From Escherichia coli (GTDB lineage: Bacteria; Pseudomonadota; Gammaproteobacteria; Enterobacterales; Enterobacteriaceae), in the NCBI RefSeq assembly GCF_016026235.1, contig NZ_CP065613.1: a DNA stretch of 64,000 nucleotides; one strand, given 5' to 3'. Both the position numbers and the translations under genes were made by a program. Of this stretch, positions 10,101-57,070 are shown one piece after another. The notes under the pieces were generated by a model, which saw only the letters and a program-made list of their open reading frames with translations, did not search any database and was not told the DNA's origin. The stretch's first letter is position 1. The number at the start of each line of letters is the position of its first letter.

Positions 10101-10147
10101 CCCTTACCTTTAAAGCGGATGCGATTTATTTCGCATCTTTTTTTACC

Positions 10148-10156
10148 TGAATTTAC
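10148..10156. repeat. IS1 target-site duplication, left copy (tgaatttac)
   Basis: 9-bp direct repeat immediately flanking the IS1 left inverted repeat. Confidence 0.8.
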
Positions 10157-10211
10157 GGTAATGCTGCCAACTTACTGATTTAGTGTATGATGGTGATTTT
10201 AAGGTGCTTGC

Positions 10212-10487
10212 GTGGCTTCCATTTCCATCAGATGTCCTTCCTGCTCCGCTACTGAAGGCGTGGTGCGTAACGGCAAAAGCACTGCCGGACATCAGCGCTA
10301 TCTCTGCTCTCATTGCCGTAAAACATGGCAACTACAGTTCACTTACACCGCCTCTCAGCCCGGTACGCACCAGAAAATCATTGATATGGCCATGAATGGC
10401 GTCGGATGTCGCGCCAGTGCACGCATTATGGGCGTTGGCCTCAACACGGTTTTACGTCACTTAAAAAACTCAGGCCGCAGTCGGTAA
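10212..10487 (+). CDS. insA: IS1 InsA (transposition inhibitor / N-terminal part of InsAB' transposase)
   Basis: 91-aa [40 protein letters not shown], recognisably InsA; the A6C frameshift motif at 10463-10469 is intact. Confidence 0.92.
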
Positions 10488-10909
10488 CCTCGCGCATACA
10501 GCCGGGCAGTGACGTCATCGTCTGCGCTGAAATGGACGAACAGTGGGGCTACGTCGGTGCTAAATCACGTCAGCGCTGGCTGTTTTACGCGTATGACAGG
10601 ATACGGAGGACGGTTGTGGCGCACGTCTTCGGTGAACGCACTCTGGCCACACTGGAGCGTCTTCTGAGCCTGCTGTCGGCCTTTGAGGTCGTGGTATAGA
10701 TGACGGATGGCTGGCCGCTGTATGAATCACGCCTGAAGGGAAAGCTGCACGTTATCAGCAAGCGTTACACTCAGCGCATTGAGCGACATAATCTGAATCT
10801 GAGACAACATCTGGCAAGGCTGGGACGGAAGTTACTGTCGTTCTCAAAATCGGTGGAGTTGCATGACAAGGTCATCGGGCATTATCTGAACATAAAACAC
10901 TATCAGTAA
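10406..10909 (+). pseudogene. insB: IS1 insB frame interrupted by an in-frame TAG stop at 10697-10699
   Basis: The InsB frame is split into two track ORFs (10406-10699 and 10700-10909, same frame); the stop lies where canonical InsB, as I recall it, has Trp (…[10 protein letters not shown]). Confidence 0.7.
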
Positions 10910-10924
10910 GTTGGAGTCATTACC

Positions 10925-10933
10925 TGAATTTAC
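10925..10933. repeat. IS1 target-site duplication, right copy (tgaatttac)
   Basis: 9-bp direct repeat identical to 10148-10156. Confidence 0.8.
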
Positions 10934-11005
10934 TACAAAAAAAGCCACGGTATAAACCGTGGCAAAATCCAACATAGCTAAAAATAATCAGGCGAGTGGT
11001 ATGAC

Positions 11006-11791
11006 TTAAATCTCTACGTCGCGGTTGCAATCTTTCGAGTAAATATAGCTGAACGCTTCACCACGCCCTACGCCATAACCAGCCTGTAAAGAATAAGCGC
11101 CCATAAAGATGTAATCGCCTTTTTTCACCGGGATCCAGTTATTGTCGAGGTTATAAACCCCCTGACCGGAAAGAATATAGGCACCGTGTTCCTGAACGTG
11201 TGTTTCGATATAACCATGGCTGGCACTTGGTGCAAAAGAGAGGATATGCATGTTCATATCAAAACCTAACTCTTTGGGCAGAAAATCCAGCAGGATCACA
11301 TCATCCATACCTTCATAGTGAATGCGTTCCAGTTCGCTGGCATTGCCAGAAACCAGCCACGGTGCATGGCCTTCTACCGGAACATAGCGGCGCTTATATA
11401 AAAAGATTTGGCTGTCTTCGGACTGGGCGTTAACAAACGTCATTAAGGAGCCTGGCGGGCAATAAAGATAGCCACCTTCGCTTAAGGCAAATGTTTTGCC
11501 TTCGGCTTTGGCAGTGATATTTCCAGAGATCACATACAGGAACGTTTCAATGCCTTCGCCACCGAAGCCCTGTTGGTTGCCACCGTTTTGATGCAGTGTG
11601 ACCAGATAATCAACAAAAGAGGCACCCAGCTTTGGCGTGGAGAGGATTGTCGCGTCACAATTTTCAAAGCCCGGAATAATATTTTTTACCAGACCGTCTG
11701 GTGTTAACAGTGCGAAATTACCGTGTTTCACAATCGCACGGTTAGCCAGTAAATCATCGCGGTAACCGGTGACGTTATTTAAATATCCCAT
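11006..11791 (-). CDS. allE: (S)-ureidoglycine aminohydrolase (cupin)
   Basis: 261-aa ORF, last gene of the allD-allC-allE operon by synteny (K-12 ylbA). Confidence 0.88.
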   Translation of the reverse strand: MGYLNNVTGYRDDLLANRAIVKHGNFALLTPDGLVKNIIPGFENCDATILSTPKLGASFVDYLVTLHQNGGNQQGFGGEGIETFLYVISGNITAKAEGKTFALSEGGYLYCPPGSLMTFVNAQSEDSQIFLYKRRYVPVEGHAPWLVSGNASELERIHYEGMDDVILLDFLPKELGFDMNMHILSFAPSASHGYIETHVQEHGAYILSGQGVYNLDNNWIPVKKGDYIFMGAYSLQAGYGVGRGEAFSYIYSKDCNRDVEI

Positions 11792-11801
11792 TTATGACTC
11801 C

Positions 11802-13037
11802 TTATTTCTGCCAGGCAAGTTGATAAAGCATGAGTGCCAACGTTTTGACCCCTTCGGCAAGGTCGGTAATATTGGTGCGTTCCGCCGGGTTATGGCTGAT
11901 CCCGTTGATGCTGGGGATAAAAATCATGCAGGTTGGTACGCGAGGCGCGAAAATTTGCGCGTCGTGCCCGGCACCACTGTGCATCACCCGGTAATTCAGT
12001 TTTTCACTTTCACACAATTCTGTCAGGGTGGCGACCAGGTCCTTATTCATCGGCACGGGTTCTTCGTCCATCCATAAATCGATATCAATACCAATGTCCA
12101 TTTCATCGCAAATCGCCCGCATGTCGTTTTCTAACTGTTGGGTGAAATCATGCAGCACGGCGGCGTCGGTATGACGACAATCAATGGTGAACGTGGTTTT
12201 ACCCGGCACCACATTCACCGTATTCGGGCGCGGCTCTACTTTCCCAAAGGTCAGAACCAGCGGATCGCCCATCTTTTTCGCTTTTTCGATCGATTGATGG
12301 CAAATGCGACTGAAAGCGTAAACCGTATCACGACGATAACCCATCGGCGTGGTGCCTGCATGGTTTGATTCGCCGTTCAGCGTCACCGTATAGCGACGTT
12401 GCCCGACAATTGCATTCACCACGCCAATTGATTGCCCATTACTTTCCAGCACACAGCCCTGTTCGATATGCAGTTCGACAAAGGCTTTAATATCCTGACG
12501 CGGAGTTAGCGGGGCGTCCGGCAGAGTAAATCCGCAAGCCTTCATCGCATCGACAAAACTATTTCCTTTGGCATCACAGATATTCCGCACGTCGTCAGGA
12601 TTCGCCAGTCCAAAGATATTTTTACTGCCCCAGAAAACATACGGGAAGCGGCTGCCTTCTTCTTCCGCCATCGCCACCACTTCAACCGTACGCAGCGGTG
12701 CGCCGTATTGAGTTTTCAGCCAGTCAATTGCCAGCCACGCCGCCAGCGCGCCGAATTGCCCGTCGAGGTTACCGCCGTTAACCACGGTATCGATATGCGA
12801 ACCGCTCAGAACCACTTCCTGTGGATATTCGGTGCCATTCAGGCGACCGTATAAATTCCCCACTTCATCGAAACGTGTTTCCAGCCCGCTTGCTGCCATT
12901 CTTTTTTTAAATTGCTGCTGGGTTTCCAGCCATTCCGGCGAATAAAGTAAACGGGTCATCCCACCCGTTGGGTCAGCGCCAAATGAGGAAAGCCAGGGCA
13001 GCGCTTCTTCTATGGCTTGACGAAAATGTGTAATCAT
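11802..13037 (-). CDS. allC: Allantoate amidohydrolase (M20 peptidase family)
   Basis: 411 aa from MITHFRQAIEE (track ORF extends 6 codons upstream to 13055); synteny. Confidence 0.9.
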   Translation of the reverse strand: MITHFRQAIEEALPWLSSFGADPTGGMTRLLYSPEWLETQQQFKKRMAASGLETRFDEVGNLYGRLNGTEYPQEVVLSGSHIDTVVNGGNLDGQFGALAAWLAIDWLKTQYGAPLRTVEVVAMAEEEGSRFPYVFWGSKNIFGLANPDDVRNICDAKGNSFVDAMKACGFTLPDAPLTPRQDIKAFVELHIEQGCVLESNGQSIGVVNAIVGQRRYTVTLNGESNHAGTTPMGYRRDTVYAFSRICHQSIEKAKKMGDPLVLTFGKVEPRPNTVNVVPGKTTFTIDCRHTDAAVLHDFTQQLENDMRAICDEMDIGIDIDLWMDEEPVPMNKDLVATLTELCESEKLNYRVMHSGAGHDAQIFAPRVPTCMIFIPSINGISHNPAERTNITDLAEGVKTLALMLYQLAWQK

Positions 13038-13058
13038 AAGAAAGTCCTGTCTCAATAA

Positions 13059-14108
13059 TTATTGCGCAAAGGGATTTTTCGTTTCGTATGACGTGTTATA
13101 AAGCGCGTCGGAAATTAAATACTGGTAAATATCATCAACAATTTCGATGCCTTCGACGGCGGCTTTGCGTTGTTTAATATCCTGATCCTGTCCGGGATAA
13201 TAAACCTGATTAAAACCGGGCGCGGGGGTAATGGCATTTAATTCGCGCATGGTCTGGCTAAGATGTTGACGGAATAATTCGCTGGAGGAGAAAAAGTTCG
13301 GGTTAATAACTACATGTAATTGCCCCAAATTACGCCCGGCGTGTAAATCGTCATACATCGAACTAACCTGTCGCCCGAACGGTAAGCCGAGTAAGACGCC
13401 TGAGAGGACGTCAATCATCATCATCAGGCCATACCCTTTCGGCCCGGCTGCGGGGAGCAGAGCATGTACCGCGAACGGATCGGTTGTTGGTGCACCGTTT
13501 TTATCGACCGCCCAGGTATCCGGGATAGACATATTACGCGAGCGGGCGTCGAGCACTTTTCCCCATGCCTGTACGGTAGTCGCCATATCAAAGGTAAGGA
13601 TCTCGTCGCCTTCTCCCGGCGCGGCAAAGGCCAGTGGGTTAGTACCGTAGTAAATTTCCGCGCCGCCAAACGGCACCACCATTGGATCGGACTGGCACAT
13701 CGAAATGCCAATTAATCCGGCGCGGGCTGCCTGCTGCACAAAATAAGAGATTGCGCCGCTGTGACCCATCCGGCTGATACCGACCACCGCAACGCCATTT
13801 TGCTGGGCGGTTTCGATGGCATGTTCCATACCCATTTTCGCCGCGACCTGTCCGGCGGCATTGTCGGCATGTAAAATTGCCGAGCACGGCCCGGTTTCCT
13901 CAAGACGAAACTCCGGTTCGCGGTTGGTGCCGCCTTTTGAAATGCGTTCCGCGTAGTATTCCACGCGCACCGCGCCATGAGAGTGGATCCCTCTGGCATC
14001 GGCGTAAACCAATACTTCAGCCACGGTTGCAGCGTGCTCACGTTTTAACCCAGCCTGGCAGAGTTTATTCTCAATTAGCTGGTGGAGTGTTTCCCGACTG
14101 ATTTTCAT
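13059..14108 (-). CDS. allD: Ureidoglycolate dehydrogenase
   Basis: 349-aa ORF, Ldh_2 (malate/L-lactate dehydrogenase-like) family; synteny. Confidence 0.9.
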   Translation of the reverse strand: MKISRETLHQLIENKLCQAGLKREHAATVAEVLVYADARGIHSHGAVRVEYYAERISKGGTNREPEFRLEETGPCSAILHADNAAGQVAAKMGMEHAIETAQQNGVAVVGISRMGHSGAISYFVQQAARAGLIGISMCQSDPMVVPFGGAEIYYGTNPLAFAAPGEGDEILTFDMATTVQAWGKVLDARSRNMSIPDTWAVDKNGAPTTDPFAVHALLPAAGPKGYGLMMMIDVLSGVLLGLPFGRQVSSMYDDLHAGRNLGQLHVVINPNFFSSSELFRQHLSQTMRELNAITPAPGFNQVYYPGQDQDIKQRKAAVEGIEIVDDIYQYLISDALYNTSYETKNPFAQ

Positions 14109-14424
14109 CTGTCTTCCTTTTTAACGACGGTGTGAAGCATGACTGCAATTAACATACAGGGAAAATATCTGGATTATGTGATCCAGACAGGCAAAAAAAT
14201 ATAGTTAGAATTTATTTGATAATCTTCGCGCTTTTAACCTGGTTTTTAAAACAACCATGCTTATTAAAAAATAACGCGTAATAGTCTGGCGGTTATTTGA
14301 ATTCTTTTGTTAATAATCCCTGTGTGATATTCATCACCTTATTTACCCGTTGTCATCGATACCGTAATCGCCACATTAACACTGCTCGTGCAATTGCCAT
14401 GGGTGCAATTTTTAAGGAGTTGTT

Positions 14425-16092
14425 ATGATCCACGCCTTTATTAAAAAAGGGTGTTTTCAGGATTCGGTCAGTTTAATGATTATTTCACGAAAACTCAGCG
14501 AATCAGAAAATGTTGATGATGTTTCCGTAATGATGGGTACGCCCGCCAATAAAGCGTTATTAGATACCACAGGTTTCTGGCATGACGATTTTAATAACGC
14601 CACGCCGAACGATATTTGCGTGGCAATTCGTAGCGAAGCGGCGGATGTGGGGATCGCGCAGGCGATTATGCAGCAGCTTGAAGAGGCGCTAAAACAACTG
14701 GCGCAGGGGTCAGGCAGCAGCCAGTCCTTGACGCAGGTGCGTCGCTGGGACAGTGTCTGTCAGAAATTACCCGATGCCAATCTGGCGCTGATTTCAGTGG
14801 CTGGCGAGTATGCGGCGGAGCTGGCGAATCAGGCGCTGGATCGCAACCTCAACGTGATGATGTTCTCCGATAACGTCACGCTGAAAGATGAAATCCAACT
14901 TAAAACCCGCGCGCGAGAAAAAGGCTTGCTGGTGATGGGGCCGGACTGCGGTACGTCGATGATTGCCGGCACGCCGCTGGCTTTTGCTAACGTGATGCCG
15001 GAAGGCAATATTGGCGTCATTGGCGCTTCCGGTACCGGGATTCAGGAGCTGTGCTCGCAGATTGCGCTGGCAGGGGAGGGAATTACTCACGCGATTGGCC
15101 TTGGCGGCCGCGACCTCAGCCGTGAAGTGGGCGGCATCAGTGCGCTAACAGCGCTGGAAATGCTCAGTGCAGACGAGAAAAGCGAAGTGCTGGCATTTGT
15201 TTCAAAACCACCTGCCGATGCTGTGCGTCTGAAAATTGTTAATGCCATGAAAGCAACCGGCAAACCGACGGTGGCGCTGTTTTTAGGTTATACCCCGGCG
15301 GTGGCCCGTGACGAGAATGTCTGGTTTGCCTCCTCGCTGGATGAGGCCGCACGCCTGGCTTGCCTGCTTTCACGCGTTACGGCGCGACGTAACGCGATAA
15401 CGCCAGCCAGCAGCGGATTTATTTGCGGTTTGTATACCGGCGGTACGCTGGCTGCCGAAGCGGCGGGATTACTTGCCGGACACCTTGGCGTGGAAGCCGA
15501 TGATGCCCATCATCACGGCATGATGCTCGACGCCGATGGTCACCAGATTATTGACCTCGGCGATGATTTCTACACAGTCGGGCGTCCCCATCCGATGATC
15601 GACCCAACCTTACGCAACCAGTTAATTGCCGATCTCGGCGCTAAACCGCAAGTGCGTGTGCTGCTGCTTGATGTCGTGATTGGCTTCGGTGCGACTGCCG
15701 ATCCTGCCGCCTCGCTGGTAAGCGCCTGGCAAAAAGCCTGTGCTGCGCGTTCAGACAATCAACCACTGTATGCCATTGCCACGGTGACAGGCACTGAACG
15801 TGACCCGCAATGCCGCTCGCAGCAAATCGCCACGCTGGAAGATGCGGGGATTGCGGTCGTGAGTTCGCTACCGGAAGCCACCTTGCTGGCGGCAGCGTTA
15901 ATTCATCCGCTCTCACCTGCCGCACAGCAACACACACCGTCATTACTGGAAAACGTCGCCGTGATTAACATCGGATTACGCAGTTTTGCGCTGGAGCTAC
16001 AAAGCGCCAGCAAACCGGTTGTGCATTACCAATGGTCGCCAGTCGCCGGCGGCAATAAAAAACTGGCTCGTTTATTAGAACGTTTGCAATAA
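14425..16092 (+). CDS. fdrA: FdrA (acyl-CoA synthetase/succinyl-CoA ligase alpha-like); proposed oxamate carbamoyltransferase component
   Basis: 555-aa ORF with CoA-binding Rossmann-like region; synteny after allD. Confidence 0.85.
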   Translation: MIHAFIKKGCFQDSVSLMIISRKLSESENVDDVSVMMGTPANKALLDTTGFWHDDFNNATPNDICVAIRSEAADVGIAQAIMQQLEEALKQLAQGSGSSQSLTQVRRWDSVCQKLPDANLALISVAGEYAAELANQALDRNLNVMMFSDNVTLKDEIQLKTRAREKGLLVMGPDCGTSMIAGTPLAFANVMPEGNIGVIGASGTGIQELCSQIALAGEGITHAIGLGGRDLSREVGGISALTALEMLSADEKSEVLAFVSKPPADAVRLKIVNAMKATGKPTVALFLGYTPAVARDENVWFASSLDEAARLACLLSRVTARRNAITPASSGFICGLYTGGTLAAEAAGLLAGHLGVEADDAHHHGMMLDADGHQIIDLGDDFYTVGRPHPMIDPTLRNQLIADLGAKPQVRVLLLDVVIGFGATADPAASLVSAWQKACAARSDNQPLYAIATVTGTERDPQCRSQQIATLEDAGIAVVSSLPEATLLAAALIHPLSPAAQQHTPSLLENVAVINIGLRSFALELQSASKPVVHYQWSPVAGGNKKLARLLERLQ

Positions 16093-16101
16093 GGGGTTCC
16101 C

Positions 16102-17361
16102 ATGTTTACATCAGTGGCGCAAGCCAATGCTGCGGTTATCGAACAAATTCGTCGCGCTCGTCCACACTGGCTGGATGTGCAACTGGCTTCTTCACTTATC
16201 AGCGAACTACACCCGGGCAAAACACTGCTTCACGCCGGGCCGCCAATGCGCTGGCAGGAGATGACCGGACCCATGAAAGGGGCGTGCGTGGGCGCATGTC
16301 TGTTCGAAGGTTGGGCGAAAGATGAAGCGCAGGCGCTGGCAATACTGGAGCAGGGGGAAGTGAACTTCATTCCTTGTCACCATGTGAATGCCGTCGGGCC
16401 AATGGGCGGTATTACTTCTGCCAGTATGCCGATGCTGGTGGTCGAGAACGTGACCGACGGCAACCGGGCGTACTGCAACCTCAACGAAGGTATCGGCAAA
16501 GTGATGCGTTTTGGCGCTTACGGCGAAGATGTCCTGACTCGCCATCGCTGGATGCGCGATGTGTTAATGCCAGTATTAAGCGCGGCGCTGGGGCGCATGG
16601 AGCACGGTATCGATCTCACGGCGATGATGGCGCAGGGCATTACCATGGGCGATGAGTTCCATCAACGCAATATTGCTTCCTCAGCACTGTTAATGCGTGC
16701 GCTGGCCCCACAAATTGCTCGCCTCGATCATGATAAACAGCACATCGCGGAAGTGATGGATTTCCTCAGCGTGACCGATCAGTTCTTCCTCAACCTTGCG
16801 ATGGCTTACTGCAAGGCGGCGATGGATGCTGGCGCGATGATCCGCGCAGGCAGCATCGTCACGGCTATGACCCGCAACGGCAATATGTTCGGGATTCGGG
16901 TAAGCGGGCTGGGCGATCGCTGGTTTACTGCGCCTGTAAACACTCCGCAAGGTCTGTTTTTCACCGGCTTCTCGCAGGAGCAGGCGAACCCGGATATGGG
17001 CGATAGCGCGATTACCGAAACCTTTGGTATCGGAGGTGCGGCAATGATCGCAGCGCCTGGCGTAACGCGCTTTGTCGGTGCGGGTGGCATGGAAGCCGCC
17101 AGAACGGTATCTGAAGAGATGGCGGAAATTTACCTTGAACGCAATATGCAGTTGCAGATCCCTGGCTGGGATTTCCAGGGCGCGTGCCTGGGGCTGGACA
17201 TTCGTCGCGTGGTAGAAACCGGCATTACGCCACTCATCAATACCGGTATCGCCCATAAAGAGGCGGGGATCGGGCAGATTGGCGCAGGCACCGTGCGGGC
17301 ACCGCTGGCGTGTTTTGAACAGGCCCTGGAAGCACTGGCTGAAAGTATGGGGATTGGTTGA
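16102..17361 (+). CDS. ylbE: DUF1116 protein YlbE, intact
   Basis: Uninterrupted 419-aa ORF starting 10 nt after the fdrA stop; synteny. Confidence 0.85.
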
Positions 17362-17371
17362 GGAACGCACA

Positions 17372-18187
17372 ATGACGATCATCCATCCTCTGCTTGCCAG
17401 TAGTAGCGCACCGAATTATCGCCAGTTCTGGCGGTTAGCGGGAGTGTGGCGGCGGGCGATTAACCTGATGACGGAAAGCGGCGAACTGTTAACGCTGCAT
17501 CGTCAGGGTAGTGGTTTCGGCCCCGGAGGATGGGTGCTTCGCCGCGCGCAATTCGATGCGTTATGCGGTGGATTATGCGGCAATGAACGACCACAGGTTG
17601 TGGCTCAAGGGATTCGCCTCGGACGTTTCACGGTTAAACAGCCACAGCGTTATTGTTTGCTGCGTATTACGCCGCCTGCGCATCCTCAACCGCTTGCAGC
17701 TGCATGGATGCAACGCGCGGAGGAAACCGGGCTTTTCGGGCCACTGGCGTTGGCGGCAAGCGATCCGCTGCCCGCTGAATTACGCCAGTTTCGTCACTGT
17801 TTTCAGGCCGCGCTCAATGGCGTTAAGACCGACTGGCGGCACTGGCTGGGTAAAGGCCCCGGATTAACGCCAAGTCATGATGACACGCTGAGCGGAATGC
17901 TGCTGGCGGCCTGGTATTATGGTGCTTTAGATGCGCACTCCGGTCGTCCGTTTTTTGCCTGTTCCGACAATCTTCAACTCGTTACCACAGCGGTGAGCGT
18001 CAGTTATTTACGTTATGCCGCGCAAGGATATTTCGCCTCGCCACTCCTGCATTTTGCTCATGCTCTGAGTTGCCCGAAACGTACCGCTGTTGCGATTGAT
18101 TCGCTGCTGGCGCTGGGGCATACGTCAGGGGCAGATACGCTGCTGGGGTTCTGGCTTGGTCAACAATTATTACAAGGAAAACCATGA
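17372..18187 (+). CDS. ylbF: DUF2877 protein YlbF
   Basis: 271 aa from [10 protein letters not shown] (track ORF 17279 is an upstream extension overlapping ylbE); synteny. Confidence 0.8.
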
Positions 18188-19077
18188 AAACACTGGTTGT
18201 AGCTCTTGGGGGCAACGCCTTACTCCAGCGCGGTGAGGCGCTGACGGCGGAAAATCAATATCGCAATATCGCCAGTGCTGTCCCCGCGCTGGCGCGCCTG
18301 GCCCGTTCTTATCGGCTGGCGATTGTTCACGGCAACGGGCCGCAGGTGGGGCTGCTGGCATTACAGAATCTGGCGTGGAAAGAGGTAGAACCGTATCCGC
18401 TGGATGTGCTGGTAGCGGAAAGTCAGGGGATGATTGGCTATATGCTGGCGCAGAGTTTGAGCGCACAGCCGCAGATGCCGCCTGTCACGACGGTGCTGAC
18501 GCGCATTGAAGTTTCGCCTGATGATCCGGCGTTTTTGCAGCCAGAGAAGTTTATCGGTCCGGTTTATCAGCCAGAAGAACAAGAGACACTAGAAGCGGCT
18601 TACGGCTGGCAGATGAAACGTGATGGTAAATATTTACGCCGGGTGGTGGCGTCTCCGCAACCGCGTAAAATTCTCGACAGCGAAGCCATCGAGTTGTTGC
18701 TCAAAGAGGGGCATGTGGTGTTTTGCAGTGGCGGCGGCGGTGTGCCTGTGACGGATGACGGAGCAGGGAGTGAAGCAGTGATTGATAAAGATCTCGCCGC
18801 TGCGTTGCTCGCCGAGCAGATTAATGCCGATGGACTGGTGATCCTCACCGATGCTGATGCGGTATATGAAAACTGGGGAACGCCGCAGCAACGTGCCATT
18901 CGCCATGCCACACCGGATGAGTTAGCGCCATTTGCCAAAGCCGATGGTTCGATGGGGCCGAAGGTAACGGCGGTGAGTGGTTATGTCAGAAGCCGTGGTA
19001 AACCCGCGTGGATTGGGGCGTTATCGCGAATTGAAGAGACGCTGGCGGGCGAAGCGGGGACCTGTATTTCGCTGTAG
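18184..19077 (+). CDS. ybcF: Carbamate kinase-like protein (arcC paralogue)
   Basis: 297-aa ORF, amino-acid kinase fold; start overlaps the ylbF stop by 4 nt (ATGA). Confidence 0.88.
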
Positions 19078-19107
19078 TGATGAGAGCATCCGGCAATCGG
19101 CGCACCA

Positions 19108-19198
19108 TGCCTGATGCGACGCTTGACGCGTCTTATCAGGCCTACAATGGGTACCGGATCGGTGTAGGCCGGATAAGGCGTTCACGCCGCATCCGGCA
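19108..19198. repeat. REP/BIME palindromic repeats
   Basis: gcctgatgcgacgct…gcgtcttatcaggcctaca and gtaggccggataaggcgttcacgccgcatccggca units between convergent ybcF and purK. Confidence 0.8.
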
Positions 19199-19215
19199 AT
19201 CAAATGAGCACCAGG

Positions 19216-20283
19216 TTAACTGAACTTACTCTGTGCCCACATCACGCCGCTGGCATACTCCGGCGGCAGCAGCGGGATTAAGGCTTCCAGCGTCGCGGAC
19301 AGACGCGATGTGTCGCTGTCGGTCAAATTCAGATGCCCCACTTTACGGCCCGGACGGACTTCTTTGTCGTACCAGTGCAGATGCACCAGCGGCAGTTTCA
19401 GCCAGTCATAATTCACATCGCTACCAATCAGATTGATCATCACCGACGGATTATTCACCACTGGTTGCGGTAACGGCAGATCGGTAATCGCCCGCAGATG
19501 TAGCTCAAACTGGCTGATGCTGGCACCGTTTTGTGTCCAGTGACCGCTGTTATGCACACGCGGTGCCAGTTCGTTGATCAACAGACCTTGCGGGGTGACA
19601 AAACACTCCATTGCCATCACGCCTACATAGCCCAGCTCCTGCATAATCGCCGAAAGCATCTCTTCGGCTTGCGCTTGCTGCTGCGCATTGGCCTGCGGGA
19701 AAGCGACGCTGGTGCGCAAAATACCGTCCTGATGCAGGTTATGCGTCAGCGGATAAAACACGGTGCTGCCATCAAAGCCGCGCGCGCCAACCAGCGACAC
19801 TTCACCAGAGAAGTTTATGCCCTGCTCGACAATACATTCGCCGTAGCATTCAGCCGGTAACTGTTCGGTTTCATCGGCGCGTAAACGCCATTGACCGCGT
19901 CCGTCATAGCCACCAGTGCGACGCTTAACAATCGCCAGCTCACCTAAACGATCAAACACCGCAGGCCACTCGCTGCGTTCGGCAAGTAACTGCCACGGTG
20001 CAGTCGGCAGGTGGAGCTTATCGAAAAGCTGCTTCTGAGTCAGACGGTCAGCAATAATCGGGAACACATCGCGGTTCACAAAGGCCGGATGGCGCGCCAG
20101 CTCGCGGGTTAATGCGGTTTCCGGCCAGCGTTCGATCTCAGCGGTAATCACGCTTTGTTGAAAAGGCACCGCCGCCGGTTCAGCGTCCAGCCCGACCGGC
20201 CAGACAGCAATGCCTAACGGTTCGCCGGCCTGGCGCAACATACGGCCTAACTGCCCGTTCCCGAGGACGCAAACCTGTTTCAT
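19216..20283 (-). CDS. purK: N5-carboxyaminoimidazole ribonucleotide synthase
   Basis: 355-aa ATP-grasp ORF; start overlaps the purE stop. Confidence 0.93.
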
Positions 20284-20789
20284 GCCGCACCTCGCGGGTC
20301 CGGGTTTTCCAGCACTTCGTCGGTCTGGGCTTTGCGCCAGTCATTCAGACGCTGGTGCAGTTCTTTATCATGAGTCGCAAGAATTTGTGCTGCCAGTAAC
20401 GCCGCGTTTGCCGCGCCAGCTTTACCAATCGCCAGCGTACCCACCGGAATGCCACGCGGCATTTGTACGATAGAGTAGAGGCTATCGACACCGCTCAGTG
20501 CGGCGCTCTGTACTGGCACGCCCAGCACTGGCACCAGCGTTTTGGCGGCAATCATGCCTGGCAGGTGCGCTGCGCCGCCTGCGCCCGCAATAATCACCTG
20601 ATAACCGTTCTCTTCGGCGCTTTCGGCGAAGCTGAACAGTTTATCGGGGGTGCGGTGAGCAGAAACCACTTCAACGTGGTGCGGGACATTCAGGATTTCG
20701 AAGATTTCGGCGGCGAACTGCATGGTAGCCCAGTCGCTTTTGGACCCCATCACGATGGCGACACGCGCCGGATTATTGCGGGAAGACAT
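20280..20789 (-). CDS. purE: N5-CAIR mutase
   Basis: 169 aa from [16 protein letters not shown] (track ORF is extended upstream to 20816). Confidence 0.93.
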
Positions 20790-20906
20790 GCGTCTTAAAA
20801 CTCCTGTGGTGCACAACTCTCGGCTTTAGAGGGCACAGAGAATAGCACGGAAAGAGAGCAAGGAAAACGGTTGCGTGGCTGTGAAATCAGCAAAGTTGCG
20901 GGTTTT

Positions 20907-21629
20907 TTAAAACGGAAAATGAATTAGCTCAACGTCATCCGCCGTGACTTTCACCATCGAACCTTCCGTATGCCAGGCACCCAGTACCACGCGAAAAGCA
21001 GGTTGCTGATTGGCGATAAGTTCATGCACCGCCGGGCGATGGGTATGCCCGTGGATCAGCCATTGCACCTGATGTTTTTCCATCGCACTGACTACCGCGT
21101 TTTGGTTAACGTCCATGATCGCCAGCGATTTACTGCTGTTGGCTTCTTTACTGTTCGCGCGCATTCGCGCGGCAATGCGTTTGCGCATAAACAACGGCAG
21201 AGCGAGGAATAGCGTTTGCAGCCAGGGTTTGTGGACTTTGGTGCGAAAAGCCTGATAACCCGCGTCATCGGTGCACAGCGTGTCGCCATGCATAATCAAC
21301 ACCCGACGACCATAAAGTTCGAGCACCTTTTCTTCCGGCAATAACGTCATGCCGCTTTCACGGGCAAAGCGTTTGCCGAGCAGAAAATCACGGTTGCCAT
21401 GAATGAAATAACAGGGAACGCCGGAATCGGACACCGCTTTGATCGCTGCCGCCATCTGGCGATGGAGTGGGTTGGGATCGTCGTCGCCAATCCACGCTTC
21501 AAACAGATCGCCAAGAATATACAGCGCGTCGGCCTTGCGAGCTTCCCCCGCTAAAAAACGCAGAAAACCGGCGGTGATCGCCGGTTCTTCCACGCAGAGA
21601 TGAAGATCTGCAATAAAGAGTGTCGCCAC
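20907..21629 (-). CDS. lpxH: UDP-2,3-diacylglucosamine hydrolase (lipid A pathway)
   Basis: 240-aa calcineurin-like phosphoesterase ORF (DLHL…GDLFE, GNRD motifs). Confidence 0.92.
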
Positions 21630-21631
21630 GA

Positions 21632-22126
21632 TTACTCGCTAACGGTCACGCTTTCAATGATAACGTCTTCTTTTGGCACGTCCTGGTGCATACCGCTACG
21701 ACCGGTTGCAACACCTTTGATTTTGTCTACCACGTCCATGCCTTCAACCACTTCAGCAAACACGCAGTAGCCCCAACCTTGCAGGCTTTCGCCAGAGAAG
21801 TTCAGGAAGTCGTTATCAACCACGTTGATGAAGAACTGTGCAGTTGCAGAGTGCGGAGCCTGAGTACGGGCCATTGCCAGCGTACCACGGGTATTTTTCA
21901 GGCCGTTGTTGGCTTCGTTTTTGATCGGTTCTTTGGTGGCTTTTTGTTTCATGCCCGGTTCAAAACCGCCGCCCTGAATCATAAAGCCGTTGATAACACG
22001 GTGGAAAATGGTGTTGTTGTAAAAACCTTCGCGGCAGTAGTCCAGGAAGTTTTTAACTGTTTCAGGTGCTTTATCGTCAAAAGTTTTGATGACAATATCG
22101 CCGTGATTGGTGTGGAAAGTAACCAT
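21632..22126 (-). CDS. ppiB: Peptidyl-prolyl cis-trans isomerase B (cyclophilin)
   Basis: 164-aa cyclophilin ORF ([15 protein letters not shown]). Confidence 0.95.
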
Positions 22127-22299
22127 TTTTGCATCCTGTTCCGTTTGATTGGTGCTTCAACCCGGTTCGGGTCATATATAGGGTGGTGTTATAGCATAAC
22201 CGCACGATCGGATCATCACGCAATGTATGCTGATTCGCGCGGGAAATATGGGTATTATACGCAACTCAATTACCCACACATGTATAAACGGAATCTTCG

Positions 22300-41993: not shown

Positions 41994-43376
41994 ATGTCTC
42001 CTTGTAAACTTCTGCCATTTTGTGTGGCCCTTGCGCTAACCGGTTGTTCACTGGCACCGGATTATCAGCGTCCGGCAATGCCCGTTCCTCAGCAGTTCTC
42101 ACTCAGCCAGAACGGCCTCGTTAACGCAGCAGATAACTATCAGAACGCGGGCTGGCGCACCTTTTTTGTTGATAATCAGGTGAAGACGCTGATTAGCGAG
42201 GCGCTGGAGAATAACCGGGATTTGCGCATGGAGACGCTGAAAGTGCAGGAGGCACGGGCGCAATATCGTCTGACTGATGCCGACCGCTACCCACAGCTCA
42301 ATGGTGAGGGCAGCGGCAGCTGGAGCGGCAATCTTAAAGGCGATTCAGCCACGACGCGGGAGTTTTCTACTGGCCTTAACGCCAGCTTTGACCTCGATTT
42401 TTTCGGGCGCTTAAAGAACATGAGCGAAGCCGAGCGACAAAATTATTTAGCCACTGAGGAAGCTCAGCGCGCGGTGCATATTCTGCTGGTTTCTAATGTC
42501 GCGCAAAGCTATTTCAATCAGCAGCTGGCGTATGCGCAATTGCAAATAGCCGAAGAAACGCTGCGTAATTATCAGCAGTCATATGCGTTTGTCGAAAAAC
42601 AACTGTTGACAGGTAGCAGTAATGTTCTGGCGCTGGAACAGGCTCGCGGGGTGATTGAAAGTACCCGCAGCGACATCGCTAAACGTCAGGGGGAACTGGC
42701 GCAGGCGAATAATGCATTGCAACTGTTATTGGGAAGCTACGGCAAGCTGCCGCAAGCGCAGACAGTAAACGGCGGCAGTCTGCAAAGCGTTAAATTACCG
42801 GCGGGCTTGTCGTCGCAAATCTTATTGCAGCGCCCGGATATTATGGAAGCTGAACACGCGTTAATGGCGGCTAATGCCAATATTGGCGCTGCACGCGCGG
42901 CATTTTTCCCATCTATAAGCCTGACCAGCGGAATATCAACCGCCAGCAGCGATCTGTCGTCATTATTTAACGCCAGCAGCGGGATGTGGAATTTTATTCC
43001 TAAAATTGAGATCCCCATTTTTAATGCCGGACGCAACCAGGCCAATCTGGATATCGCCGAAATTCGCCAGCAGCAGTCGGTGGTGAATTATGAACAGAAA
43101 ATCCAGAACGCCTTTAAAGAAGTGGCAGATGCGCTGGCATTACGTCAAAGCCTGAACGATCAAATTAGCGCCCAGCAGCGTTATCTGGCATCGCTGCAAA
43201 TTACTTTGCAACGGGCGCGGGCATTATATCAGCACGGAGCAGTAAGTTATCTGGAAGTGCTGGATGCCGAGCGTTCGTTATTTGCAACCCGACAAACTTT
43301 ACTTGACCTGAATTATGCCCGTCAGGTTAACGAAATTTCTTTATATACCGCACTTGGTGGCGGTTGGCAGCAATAA
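41994..43376 (+). CDS. cusC: Outer-membrane factor of the Cu(I)/Ag(I) efflux pump
   Basis: 460-aa ORF with lipoprotein signal (LTGCS); OMF family. Confidence 0.93.
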   Translation: MSPCKLLPFCVALALTGCSLAPDYQRPAMPVPQQFSLSQNGLVNAADNYQNAGWRTFFVDNQVKTLISEALENNRDLRMETLKVQEARAQYRLTDADRYPQLNGEGSGSWSGNLKGDSATTREFSTGLNASFDLDFFGRLKNMSEAERQNYLATEEAQRAVHILLVSNVAQSYFNQQLAYAQLQIAEETLRNYQQSYAFVEKQLLTGSSNVLALEQARGVIESTRSDIAKRQGELAQANNALQLLLGSYGKLPQAQTVNGGSLQSVKLPAGLSSQILLQRPDIMEAEHALMAANANIGAARAAFFPSISLTSGISTASSDLSSLFNASSGMWNFIPKIEIPIFNAGRNQANLDIAEIRQQQSVVNYEQKIQNAFKEVADALALRQSLNDQISAQQRYLASLQITLQRARALYQHGAVSYLEVLDAERSLFATRQTLLDLNYARQVNEISLYTALGGGWQQ

Positions 43377-43399
43377 CTTTTAACTCCAGGAGAGAATAA

Positions 43400-51029: not shown

Positions 51030-51118
51030 TGCCTGATGCGCTACGCTTATCATGCCTACCTGAATGAATTGGCACGAACTTGTAGGCAGGATAAGGCGGT
51101 CACGCCGCATCCGGCATA
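51030..51118. repeat. REP/BIME palindromic repeats
   Basis: gcctgatgcgctacgcttatca… and gtaggcaggataaggcggtcacgccgcatccggca units between ybdG and nfsB. Confidence 0.75.
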
Positions 51119-53798: not shown

Positions 53799-54126
53799 TT
53801 ATGTTGGCGTTTTCTATTCAGTATAGAAGTCGGAGCGGCTGGGCGAGATGCGGAAGTTCTGGAATGTTTCTTTTTTTGATGATGGTGACTGAAGCAAATT
53901 GGCTACATTTTGCAATGTGACCAGTTGCGTCATAGTTGGCTGGCGGCGAAGAATTTTGACGATTGCGGCATGCAGAAAAAAACGGGTTCAGCTTCAGTTG
54001 ATTAAATGAGGAGTGAGAAGTCCGAAACAGGATTCACTGTATAAATAAACAGCCATTTTGTTGAGGAAGGGTAAGATAACGGCGGGTGCCTGAAGCTTTC
54101 CGGTTTCAGGTTTACTCTGAGGTCTG

Positions 54127-54185
54127 GAAAGATGAAGCCCCAGGAGATATTTCTATCAACCCTGGGGCTGCCACTCCAAACCAGA
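54127..54185 (-). ncRNA. sokE: Putative Sok-type antisense RNA, hok copy 1
   Basis: Placed by analogy with known hok/sok loci (antisense to the mok leader 45-100 nt upstream of hok); exact ends were not determined. Confidence 0.35.
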
Positions 54186-54229
54186 CAATTTGGATGGTAG
54201 TTCCTTCTTCGCATGGAGGCAATATAAAC

Positions 54230-54382
54230 ATGCTGACGAAATATGCCCTTGTGGCAGTCATAGTGCTGTGTTTGACGGTACTGGGATTTACGCTTCTGGT
54301 CGGAGACTCGCTGTGTGAGTTTACGGTGAAGGAACGTAATATTGAGTTCAGGGCTGTTCTCGCTTACGAACCGAAGAAGTAG
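54230..54382 (+). CDS. hokE: Hok-family type I toxin (50 aa), copy 1
   Basis: [50 protein letters not shown]; overlapped in frame by a mok-like ORF starting at GTG 54086. Confidence 0.88.
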
Positions 54383-54404
54383 CCGTTGTGCGGGGAGTAA
54401 TCCC

Positions 54405-55698
54405 CTGAGGGATCCCCAGAAAATTTAGTAAACCATTATCATATTGGTATACCGTTGCTGTAGAACTTTCAGCCCTGCGTCAAGTGACAGTGTGTTTAGT
54501 ATGAGTGGAGAATGTCGAATCACATTCTCCGCCAGTTTTAATAACGAGATGACTCGCCTGTGCTTCACTGTATTTGCCTGATATTTATGATGTATCCCTT
54601 TGTTTTCCAGGCTGAAACCGCTTAACCACATAATGATACTGGCTAATGTTGCGATCAGACTCAATACCGTGACCCGCCCGGATGAATGACTGGCACCAAA
54701 CCGTAGTCCAAATCCCCAGCGAGGATTTTTTTCATCCCTGAAATTTTGCTCAATTTGCATTCTACGGCTGTATAATTTCATTACCTGTTTTGGCGAGAAC
54801 TCAGTACTGTTTGTGAAAATAAACCATGGTGATTTCCCGGCAGTACGAGCTTTAGCCGTCACCGATGGTCTGGTTGCTCTTTCCTTCGAGCGTTTAAATC
54901 TACGACCTTTAGGCTTACTTTTATAAAGATAAAAATGCCCTTCATGTTGTGCATTTTTATCTCGACCCAGCAGGCCTTCACCTAAATAAATTGCTGTCGT
55001 TGATGCTTTTGTGCCTGAGTCCGACACCTTTTCCCAGCCATTACCAACATTGTAATAATGATTGCCCAGTACCCGGCAAATATAGGTCCAGCCACGGGAG
55101 CGGAGCTGTTGGAACCATCGCCCCTGAAAACCGGCATCTGTAATAACAATGACATCAGTCCCGGGGGAAAAGCACTCAGCAAGCGATTCCAGAAAACGCT
55201 CATGTACATCTGCATTCGCTGTCTGTGATGATGGAACGACACAACTCATCAACGGTAAAGAACGCCCGTCACATGCCAGGCTTGCCCGCAAAAGCTGAAA
55301 ACGAGAGGCATGATAAGCACTCCAGTCAATGAGTATCACAACACGAGACATTCCCCGCGTAATCTTTTGGGTAATTCGCTGAAAAATGGTGGAAACCTCA
55401 TTTTGCAAATGTCGATTCCCCAACAGTCGATCCACCCGCTTTATTTTGTTTTTAACTGATGCCGTACCGGTTAAATGACGCCCGATACTGGTAAGTGTGA
55501 GGGAAGCGCCATTTATTACAGCATTAGTTGCGTCAATCAGTGATTTTTGACGGTAAAGATGCAAAGGGGCCAGTATATTGTTAAGGAAATTTTGGCATAA
55601 TGAACGTGCAGGCATAGTGGTGATCTCCTTGAAATTGTTAGCACAATCAATTAGATCACATCTCACTATGCCTGTCTTGTTTTCTGGGGATTCCTCAG
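54405..55698 (-). mobile_element. IS4-family insertion sequence, about 1.3 kb (IS186-like by position and target, IS10-like by ends and transposase)
   Basis: Imperfect terminal inverted repeats ctgagggatccccagaaaa / ctgaggaatccccagaaaa; flanked by a roughly 10-bp direct repeat (gagtaatccc); inserted in a GGGG-N-CCCC hairpin 22 bp after the hok stop; boundaries uncertain by 1-2 nt. Confidence 0.8.
54425..55615 (-). CDS. DDE transposase, IS4 family
   Basis: 396 aa from MPARSLCQNFLNN; DDE residues (VILIDWS, VITDAGF) and the YSRRMQIEQNFRDEK signature; the 568-aa track ORF is a read-through from flanking DNA. Confidence 0.85.
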   Translation of the reverse strand: MPARSLCQNFLNNILAPLHLYRQKSLIDATNAVINGASLTLTSIGRHLTGTASVKNKIKRVDRLLGNRHLQNEVSTIFQRITQKITRGMSRVVILIDWSAYHASRFQLLRASLACDGRSLPLMSCVVPSSQTANADVHERFLESLAECFSPGTDVIVITDAGFQGRWFQQLRSRGWTYICRVLGNHYYNVGNGWEKVSDSGTKASTTAIYLGEGLLGRDKNAQHEGHFYLYKSKPKGRRFKRSKERATRPSVTAKARTAGKSPWFIFTNSTEFSPKQVMKLYSRRMQIEQNFRDEKNPRWGFGLRFGASHSSGRVTVLSLIATLASIIMWLSGFSLENKGIHHKYQANTVKHRRVISLLKLAENVIRHSPLILNTLSLDAGLKVLQQRYTNMIMVY

Positions 55699-55932
55699 GA
55701 GTAATCCCCGCATATCCGGTTGTCAGGTCAGGATGGTAAGGCACCTGCTTTACACTTTCGCCCGCGGTCAGTGATGGCTGCGGGCGATTTCGTTTTAAGA
55801 GCAATGATGAGTTTTGCCGACAGAAGTCCGAAACAGGACTCACTGTATAAATAAACAGCCATTTTGCTAAGGAAGGGTAAGATAACGGCGGGTGCCTGAA
55901 GCTTTCCGGTTTCAGGTTAACTCTGAGGTCTG

Positions 55933-55992
55933 GAAAGATGAAGCCCCAGGAGATATTTCTATCAATCCTGGGGCTGCCACTCCGAGCCTCAA
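55933..55992 (-). ncRNA. Putative Sok-type antisense RNA, hok copy 2
   Basis: Homologous position to copy 1; exact ends were not determined. Confidence 0.3.
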
Positions 55993-56036
55993 CAACTCGG
56001 ATGGTAGTCCCTTCTTCGCATGGAGGCAATATAAAC

Positions 56037-56189
56037 ATGCTGACGAAATATGCCCTTGTGGCAGTCATAGTGCTGTGTTTGACGGTGCTGGGATTTACGC
56101 TTCTGGTCGGAGAGTCGCTGTGTGAGTTCACCGTAAAGGAACGTAATATTGAGTTTAAGGCTGTTCTCGCTTACGAACCGAAGAAGTAG
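56037..56189 (+). CDS. Hok-family type I toxin (50 aa), copy 2
   Basis: [50 protein letters not shown]; intact 3' hairpin gcggggagcaatccccgc downstream. Confidence 0.85.
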
Positions 56190-56310
56190 TCGTTGTGCGG
56201 GGAGCAATCCCCGCATATCCGGTTGTCAGGTCAGAGTGGTAAGGCACCTGCTTTACACTTTCGCCCGCAGTCAGTGATGGCTGCGGGCGAATCGTACCAG
56301 ATGTTGTCAA

Positions 56311-56944: not shown

Positions 56945-57070
56945 GAGACTGATGACAAACGCAAAACTGCCTGATGCGCTACGCTTATCAGGCCTACATG
57001 GTCCTGCAATATATTGAATTGGCAAGATTTTTGTAGGCCGGATAAGGCGTTCACGCCGCATCCGGCATGA
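56945..57070. repeat. REP/BIME palindromic repeats
   Basis: ctgatgcgctacgcttatcaggcctaca and gtaggccggataaggcgttcacgccgcatccggca units between entD and fepA. Confidence 0.75.

Follow-up and report, generated by a model that had tools for sequence, protein, structure and literature searches.

The question raised by this locus is whether four closely packed genes beside the allantoin genes of an Escherichia coli genome form an intact oxamate branch of allantoin catabolism, and whether their uninterrupted ylbE sets this genome apart from K-12. The genes lie on the plus strand at positions 14425–19077 of the window, i.e., the whole stretch of 64,000 nucleotides that was analysed. Three of them are assigned to subunits of oxamic transcarbamylase (OXTCase): fdrA/allF (14425–16092, ATG to TAA, 555 aa), ylbE/allG (16102–17361, ATG to TGA, 419 aa), and ylbF/allH (17372–18187, ATG to TGA, 271 aa). 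The fourth, ybcF/allK (18184–19077, ATG to TAG, 297 aa), is assigned to a catabolic carbamate kinase. Both the ORF list and direct translation gave zero internal stops in the four genes; thus, fdrA is intact, and ylbE is the single unbroken ORF that the earlier note had described. The close packing on one strand is equally borne out, with 9 nt between fdrA and ylbE, 10 nt between ylbE and ylbF, and a 4-nt overlap (ATGA) between ylbF and ybcF. Shine-Dalgarno-like purine runs (AAGGAG, GGGG, GAGGA, and AAGGA, in gene order) precede the four starts. For ylbF, the start was set at the ATG at 17372, which is the K-12 start, whereas the mechanical ORF list extends the frame to a TTG at 17279. Antisense or overlapping ORFs in the block, such as one of 230 aa on the minus strand at 16690–17382, were rejected as genes; they are taken for by-products of the conserved sense genes, and none is annotated in K-12, W3110, or FDAARGOS_943. 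A scan with Rfam at gathering thresholds placed no RNA family within 14109–19215.

Comparison with K-12 MG1655 identifies the block. In tblastn searches with the K-12 proteins, all four products matched over their full length without gaps at 98.0–99.0% amino acid identity (fdrA 98.0%, ylbE 98.3%, and ylbF 98.9%). At least 80% of the region 14000–19500 is present in 5,407 of 5,426 complete E. coli genomes. The four ORFs are therefore not chance reading frames. The K-12 allFGHK genes (b0518, b4572/b0519, b0520, and b0521) have the same order, lengths, starts, stops, and spacers as those of the window, and their neighbors also agree, with allDCE divergent upstream and purK convergent downstream. 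Between the two loci there are 91 nucleotide and 24 amino acid substitutions (11 in fdrA, 7 in ylbE, and 3 in ybcF), and the amino acid changes fall outside invariant columns. Gene order from allR to cysS is collinear with K-12, and tblastn with the K-12 proteins recovered all 15 all/glx genes of the window at full length. Among them, allE (11009–11791), allC (11805–13037), and allD (13059–14108), which belong to earlier pathway steps, lie intact on the minus strand and are gapless and 98.1–98.9% identical to their K-12 counterparts. The block had been placed downstream of the allantoin genes; its position is described more precisely as adjacent to allDCE and divergent from it, with 316 nt of intergenic sequence in between. 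These comparisons establish orthology, integrity, and gene order. Judged from its sequence, the segment 14425–19077 is almost certainly orthologous to allFGHK of E. coli, the operon for the oxamate branch by which allantoin is broken down anaerobically.

The uninterrupted ylbE had drawn attention because the K-12 gene was described as split by a frameshift. An alignment of the window, MG1655 v3, W3110, and FDAARGOS_943 located that frameshift in a run of five G residues at 16349–16353 (plus strand; nt 248–252 of ylbE, codons 83–84). The window and MG1655 v3 have G5, whereas W3110 has G4, and with one G fewer its reading frame is truncated past codon 86, terminating after EQGK. The W3110 RefSeq record accordingly lists a ylbE of 1259 nt annotated as frameshifted, and the old MG1655 reference also carried a frameshifted ylbE (PMC5460176, PMC4759930). 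This description holds for these two records. It does not hold for the current MG1655 record, NC_000913.3, where ylbE is intact with 419 aa (b4572, YP_009029994.1). An identical intact ylbE in K-12 references had been named as evidence that would overturn the contrast; the current MG1655 gene essentially provides it, being intact and equal in length, start, and stop, although it is not identical, differing at 22 nt and 7 aa. When exact matches to this specific G4 allele alone were counted, the frameshifted 64-mer occurred in 5 of 5,416 matching complete E. coli genomes, while the 65-mer with G5 occurred exactly in 3,814. In the species, ylbE is normally intact and the window is no exception; the G4 split is confined to a few K-12 records. 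The idea of a ylbE pseudogene in K-12 goes back to the old reference and to the W3110 record, and is unsuitable as a contrast. As a side observation, the AllG protein is identical in GCA_021505815.1, GCA_017137395.1, GCA_901482675.2, and GCA_016026335.1, whose loci are 1–5 nt off over 7.3 kb.

To date, the function of the operon has been worked out in K-12 by others, who have shown the activities, the need for all three OXTCase genes, the co-transcription, and the regulation. The AllF-AllG-AllH complex was purified and shown to be an active OXTCase, and its kinetics were determined (Kim & Kim 2024, PMC11326118): carbamoyl phosphate has a Km of 1.3 mM and oxamate one of 36.9 mM, Vmax is 15–27 U/mg, and the activity depends on Mg2+. 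The assay was run in the reverse direction only, from oxamate and carbamoyl phosphate to oxalurate. In the same study, the wild type yielded 17.7 mM oxamate, the ΔallF and ΔallG mutants 0 and the ΔallH mutant 1.2 mM, and a triple mutant was restored only by allFGH together. For YbcF/AllK, carbamate kinase kinetics were obtained with the purified protein, and the four genes were found to be co-transcribed (Kim & Kim 2022, PMC9843812). AllS and ArcA act as activators of the operon (Kim & Kim 2025, PMC12535856); anaerobic cells given allantoin expressed about 4,000 MU from an allF'-'lacZ fusion, a value that dropped to about 100 MU in ΔallS or ΔarcA strains, and EMSA showed binding in the allF promoter area. 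The deletion mutants and enzyme assay that the earlier note had proposed are therefore already in the literature for K-12, where the activity is present and each gene is needed. The note was right about the gene identities and the pathway role, but its description of a candidate route with limited biochemical characterisation has been overtaken by these reports. The observation is confirmed but known.

By orthology, the window would encode the following route. AllD would oxidise ureidoglycolate to oxalurate. AllF-AllG-AllH (OXTCase, EC 2.1.3.5) would use phosphate to split oxalurate, yielding carbamoyl phosphate and oxamate. The latter would be a dead-end product without further metabolism, and AllK (carbamate kinase, EC 2.7.2.2) would pass the phosphate to ADP, giving ATP, NH3, and CO2. 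Transcription would proceed from the allD-allF intergenic region, with AllS conveying the allantoin signal and ArcA that of anaerobiosis. The pairing of a transcarbamylase with a carbamate kinase parallels that of OTCase and ArcC in the catabolic arginine deiminase pathway. AllFGH belongs to the same reaction class as the classical transcarbamylases (ATCase PyrB, OTCase ArgI/ArgF, and YgeW), in that a carbamoyl group is transferred to or from carbamoyl phosphate.

Profile searches agree with these assignments. FdrA matched NCBIfam NF004760 over residues 1–555 of 555 with 1039 bits (cut-off 433), and its counterpart in the PDB is 3DMY, "Protein fdrA" (E = 4e-303). AllG matched PF06545 with 326.8 bits (cut-off 27), and AllH matched PF11392 with 100.8 bits (cut-off 25) and retains the family-invariant motifs. 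AllK matched the NCBIfam equivalog NF006926 (617 bits, cut-off 416), TIGR00746 (423 bits, cut-off 358), and the Pfam domain AA_kinase. The OTCace_N and OTCace domains of the ATCase/OTCase superfamily were looked for and were not found, and AllG and AllH have no informative fold relatives among solved structures. In K-12 as in the window, AllFGH would be a three-subunit transcarbamylase without the OTCase fold.

The domains of FdrA could suggest a different chemistry. FdrA contains Pfam CoA_binding and Ligase_CoA domains, with a second Ligase_CoA domain at residues 336–491, and both NCBIfam and PGAP name it "acyl-CoA synthetase FdrA". It is homologous, at residues ~100–290, to the α subunit of succinyl-CoA synthetase and the ADP-forming acyl-CoA synthetase superfamily. 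In BLASTP, FdrA 118–290 aligns to SucD 66–238 (E = 4e-9), with the SGT of FdrA (202–204) falling on that of SucD. FdrA might then be an acyl-CoA synthetase or an oxamate:CoA ligase, and the block a site of CoA-dependent chemistry rather than of transcarbamoylation. In the succinyl-CoA synthetase α subunit, however, a GHAG phospho-histidine loop follows the second domain; the FdrA alignment stops at SucD residue 238, ahead of this loop, and searches of FdrA for the motifs GHAG, GH[AS]G, and HAG found none. FdrA scored 54 bits against the succinyl-CoA synthetase equivalog, far under the cut-off of 336, BLASTP against SucC returned nothing significant, and Pfam gave no ATP-grasp match in FdrA, AllG, or AllH. 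FdrA thus differs from the α subunit in lacking both GHAG and an ATP-grasp partner subunit, and in carrying an extra N-terminal domain, PF27530 (HMA_AllF_N). Moreover, purified AllFGH makes oxalurate in a mix of Mg2+ and buffer to which neither CoA nor ATP is added (PMC11326118), and FdrA by itself showed no activity. A CoA ligase is accordingly an extremely improbable reading of the block.

For the oxamate branch itself, the same homology points to a possible mechanism, drawn from a pairwise alignment at 21% identity together with the motifs of succinyl-CoA synthetase. FdrA may supply a site for phosphate or acyl phosphate that resembles the one in the α subunit. Since it keeps SGT but has neither GHAG nor ATP-grasp, carbamoyl phosphate would be released instead of phosphorylating the enzyme. 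In a more speculative reading, AllFGH would be a derivative of succinyl-CoA synthetase, in which the SGT phosphate site of FdrA would serve an acyl-phosphate-forming phosphorolysis of oxalurate and AllG and AllH would stand in for the β subunit. We put this latter reading forward tentatively, as an idea that is rather unlikely to be right, along with the smaller possibility that promoter substitutions alter the strength of induction.

These substitutions lie in the divergent allD-allF intergenic region (14109–14424, 316 nt), which contains the promoter of the allF operon together with the binding area of AllS and ArcA. The region keeps its K-12 length and differs from K-12 by 13 substitutions (95.9% identity), of which eleven cluster at −200 to −135 from the allF ATG. 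This span overlaps the AllS EMSA fragment (−203/−144) of PMC12535856 as well as the ArcA sites predicted there. This cluster may alter induction of the oxamate branch in the lineage. A consensus promoter scan of 14000–19300 gave 2 sites against 3.6 expected from shuffled sequence and is uninformative on the real allF promoter; the corresponding terminator scan gave 5 against 6.3 expected.

If the promoter were altered or an activator lost, the operon could be intact in sequence yet silent or decaying in its lineage. The cluster just described would suit this explanation, as would an IS1-like element that the window has between glxK and allE, and the absence of allS, although the latter simply lies outside the window, which begins just past allA, itself also outside. 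In FDAARGOS_943, the complete genome closest to the window (99.9% identical), fdrA is interrupted by an IS5-family element and allB by an IS1, and allE contains a stop codon within its frame; all three genes are inactivated, which indicates that the pathway is dispensable in the lineage. Yet the window keeps all of its all/glx genes at full length, its amino acid changes spare invariant columns, and its promoter allele, at least 99% identical in 616 of 5,338 matching complete E. coli genomes, is a common natural variant. Silencing or decay is very unlikely, and an intact allFGHK operon remains the preferred reading.

For annotation, the family names AllG and AllH are already in Pfam, while the labels "acyl-CoA synthetase FdrA", "DUF1116", and "DUF2877" persist in many RefSeq annotations, which could be brought up to date. 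What is new is minor: the fold isolation of AllG and AllH, an FdrA without the phospho-histidine motif, and the IS-broken fdrA of the nearest complete genome. At the other end of the operon, the convergent allK-purK spacer (19078–19215) measures 138 nt in the window and 194 nt in K-12, i.e., 56 nt shorter. It contains REP/BIME-type repeats, of which a 36-nt unit recurs at 57032–57067 and 51081–51116, and these repeats explain why the genome search gave, at the median, 34 matching places per genome.

Four closely packed genes lie on the same strand of the window: fdrA (allF; 14425–16092, +, 555 aa), ylbE (allG; 16102–17361, +, 419 aa), ylbF (allH; 17372–18187, +, 271 aa), and ybcF (allK; 18184–19077, +, 297 aa). 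The ORF list and direct translation confirm both this arrangement and the earlier note's reading of ylbE as a single frame, and all four genes are uninterrupted. The start of ylbF was taken at ATG 17372, the K-12 start, whereas the mechanical ORF list runs to TTG 17279. fdrA and ylbE are separated by 9 nt and ylbE and ylbF by 10 nt, while ylbF and ybcF overlap at ATGA; a Shine-Dalgarno-like purine-rich run is located upstream of each start. The block is real and correctly identified, and it is ordinary: it represents the characterised allFGHK operon, intact as it normally is.

All four genes are identical in length, start codon, and stop codon to those of K-12 MG1655 (NC_000913.3). For fdrA, ylbE, ylbF, and ybcF, respectively, the two strains differ at 36, 22, 14, and 19 nucleotides and at 11, 7, 3, and 3 amino acids. 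None of the seven substitutions of AllG (L28, H37, P38, H168, D272, T335, and G355) falls in a column that is invariant in an alignment of 26 sequences, and the window residue at position 272 is the family consensus. From allR to cysS, 20 of 20 K-12 proteins matched the window full-length and without gaps (tblastn). The gene order, starting just past allA, is collinear with that of K-12, except for an IS1-like insertion (10136–10934) and the lack of the DLP12 prophage. At least 80% of window 14000–19500 is present in 5,407 of 5,426 complete E. coli genomes.

The earlier note described ylbE as split in K-12. This is true only of W3110 and of an MG1655 record that has since been superseded; the current MG1655 RefSeq entry (b4572, YP_009029994.1) is annotated intact with 1260 nt, and the K-12 contrast was built on an outdated reference. 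In the W3110 RefSeq record (NC_007779.1; 2582–3840 of its locus, L004), ylbE is 'frameshifted' and has 1259 nt. Alignment of the alleles located the lesion to one missing G, i.e., GGGG in W3110 versus GGGGG in the window, MG1655, and E. coli FDAARGOS_943, at nt 248–252 (codons 83–84, window 16349–16353); the W3110 frame terminates past ...EQGK. W3110 also has A for G at nt 114, a synonymous change. These are the same two positions at which differences from the old MG1655 reference have been reported (A>G at 547,694 and +G at 547,831). The resulting sequence has been named the 'ylbE+ allele' of MG1655 stocks (PMC4759930), and the change in NCM3722 has been described as having 'restored an intact ancestral gene' (PMC3045373). 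Of 5,416 matching genomes, only 5 contain an exact copy of a 64-nt probe with the four-G run; four of them, among the matches listed, are W3110 and the K-12-like assemblies CIT, LIM, and CAR. The five-G 65-mer from the window is exact in 3,814 genomes, and substitutions account for the remainder. These counts, together with the MG1655 annotation, indicate that an intact ylbE is the norm for E. coli and for the current K-12 MG1655 reference. The extra G presumably entered MG1655 with revision U00096.3, following stock-culture resequencing; the W3110 RefSeq record retains the frameshift, since dropped from the MG1655 reference, be it a genuine allele of W3110 or a sequencing error left uncorrected.

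The nearest complete genome is that of FDAARGOS_943 (99.9% identical), the others among the matches listed reaching at most 98.6%. In its locus (L002), fdrA (20426–23011) is broken by an IS5-family element inserted at the equivalent of window 14561–14563, with a 3-bp overlap at the junction; allB (11438–13576) is broken by IS1, and allE (17007–17792) has an internal stop. All three genes are intact in the window strain (tblastn). Judging from these lesions, the allantoin pathway is decaying in the sister strain; in the window it is intact. Several NCBI assemblies have near-identical loci. The IS1-like element of the window is located between glxK and allE, a site without an element in K-12. 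It shows ~91% identity to the IS1A copies of FDAARGOS_943, in whose annotation it is labelled IS1F and carries an internal stop. Its right end adjoins a match to the Rfam sRNA family STnc480 (10933–10999).

The 316-nt allD-allF intergenic region (14109–14424) has 13 substitutions relative to K-12, 11 of which cluster at −200 to −135 from the allF ATG (window 14225–14290), where they overlap two predicted ArcA sites as well as the AllS fragment of the published EMSA. The variant is natural and common, since 616 complete E. coli genomes are at least 99% identical to it; identities range down to 95.9% (K-12/BW25113 type).

The predicted products are assigned unambiguously by curated profiles. FdrA scores 1039 bits against NCBIfam NF004760 (cut-off 433) and also hits the Pfam families CoA_binding and Ligase_CoA. 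YlbE falls in PF06545, currently titled 'Oxamate carbamoyltransferase subunit AllG', and YlbF in PF11392, 'Oxamate carbamoyltransferase subunit AllH'. YbcF scores 617 bits against NF006926, the equivalog model for carbamate kinase (cut-off 416). The earlier note regarded the route as a candidate with limited characterisation. Published mutants, enzymology, and regulation instead make it an established pathway, and the mutant and enzyme-assay checks it proposed are already in the literature. Oxamate is 0 in ΔallF and ΔallG and 1.2 mM in ΔallH, compared with 17.7 mM in the wild type, and the triple mutant is rescued only by allFGH together (Kim & Kim 2024, PMC11326118). Purified 6xHis-AllF/AllG/AllH-6xHis converts carbamoyl phosphate and oxamate to oxalurate, with Km values of 1.3 mM and 36.9 mM, respectively, and an optimum at pH 9 and 10 mM Mg2+ (PMC11326118). 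The four genes are co-transcribed, and carbamate kinase kinetics have been measured for purified YbcF (Kim & Kim 2022, PMC9843812). Anaerobic allantoin induces allF'-'lacZ ~38-fold, ΔallS and ΔarcA abolish this induction, and AllS and ArcA binding was seen by EMSA (Kim & Kim 2025, PMC12535856).

In the established pathway, AllFGH converts oxalurate and Pi to oxamate and carbamoyl phosphate, AllK generates ATP and carbamate from carbamoyl phosphate and ADP, and carbamate decomposes to NH3 and CO2. From each allantoin, the oxamate route thereby obtains one ATP and a third NH3, and in a urease-negative organism it is the sole route recovering that third nitrogen.

The structural mechanism of AllFGH is the sole scientific question tied to the locus, and it is general rather than window-specific. 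A domain profile search detected an ATCase/OTCase domain in none of the three subunits, and AllG and AllH have no solved relatives that are informative, in keeping with the published view of a new type of transcarbamylase. Two AllH motifs invariant among 28 homologues, GxGxGLTPxxDD (160–171) and GHTSGAD (249–255), are candidates for elements of the active site or for ligand binding. FdrA 118–290 aligned to residues 66–238 of SucD, the E. coli succinyl-CoA synthetase alpha subunit (E 4e-9), with GASGTG opposite SRSGTL. In succinyl-CoA synthetase structures, the SGT common to both caps the phosphoryl-binding helix. The alignment ends just short of the SucD phospho-histidine loop; a motif search found no GHAG-type motif in FdrA, and neither domain profiles nor comparison with SucC revealed an ATP-grasp partner. 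FdrA may supply a succinyl-CoA synthetase-like site for phosphate or acyl-phosphate chemistry. In that case, with no phospho-histidine relay, carbamoyl phosphate would be released and then passed to AllK.

The allK-purK spacer (19078–19215) consists of REP/BIME-type repeats, which account for the ~34 matching places that the first similarity search gave per genome. One 36-nt unit is found again at 51081–51116 and 57032–57067, and the K-12 spacer is 56 nt longer. Farther along, argU (tRNA-Arg, 32419–32497) is directly followed by envY, the 21-kb DLP12 cryptic prophage of K-12 being absent. Two hok/sok-type loci at 54016–56291 form a ~390-nt direct repeat (95–96%), a length unlike that of an ordinary target-site duplication, with Rfam sok matches at 54084–54238 and 55890–56045 and a Hok-like ORF at each. 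Between them is a region that contains a minus-strand, transposase-like ORF of 568 aa (54425–56131) and is bounded by 20-nt inverted repeats at 54404–54423 and 55680–55699. In the cusC-cusF spacer (43373–43378), ~118 nt of K-12 (596,986–597,103) are missing from the window, which is probably another repeat-element polymorphism.
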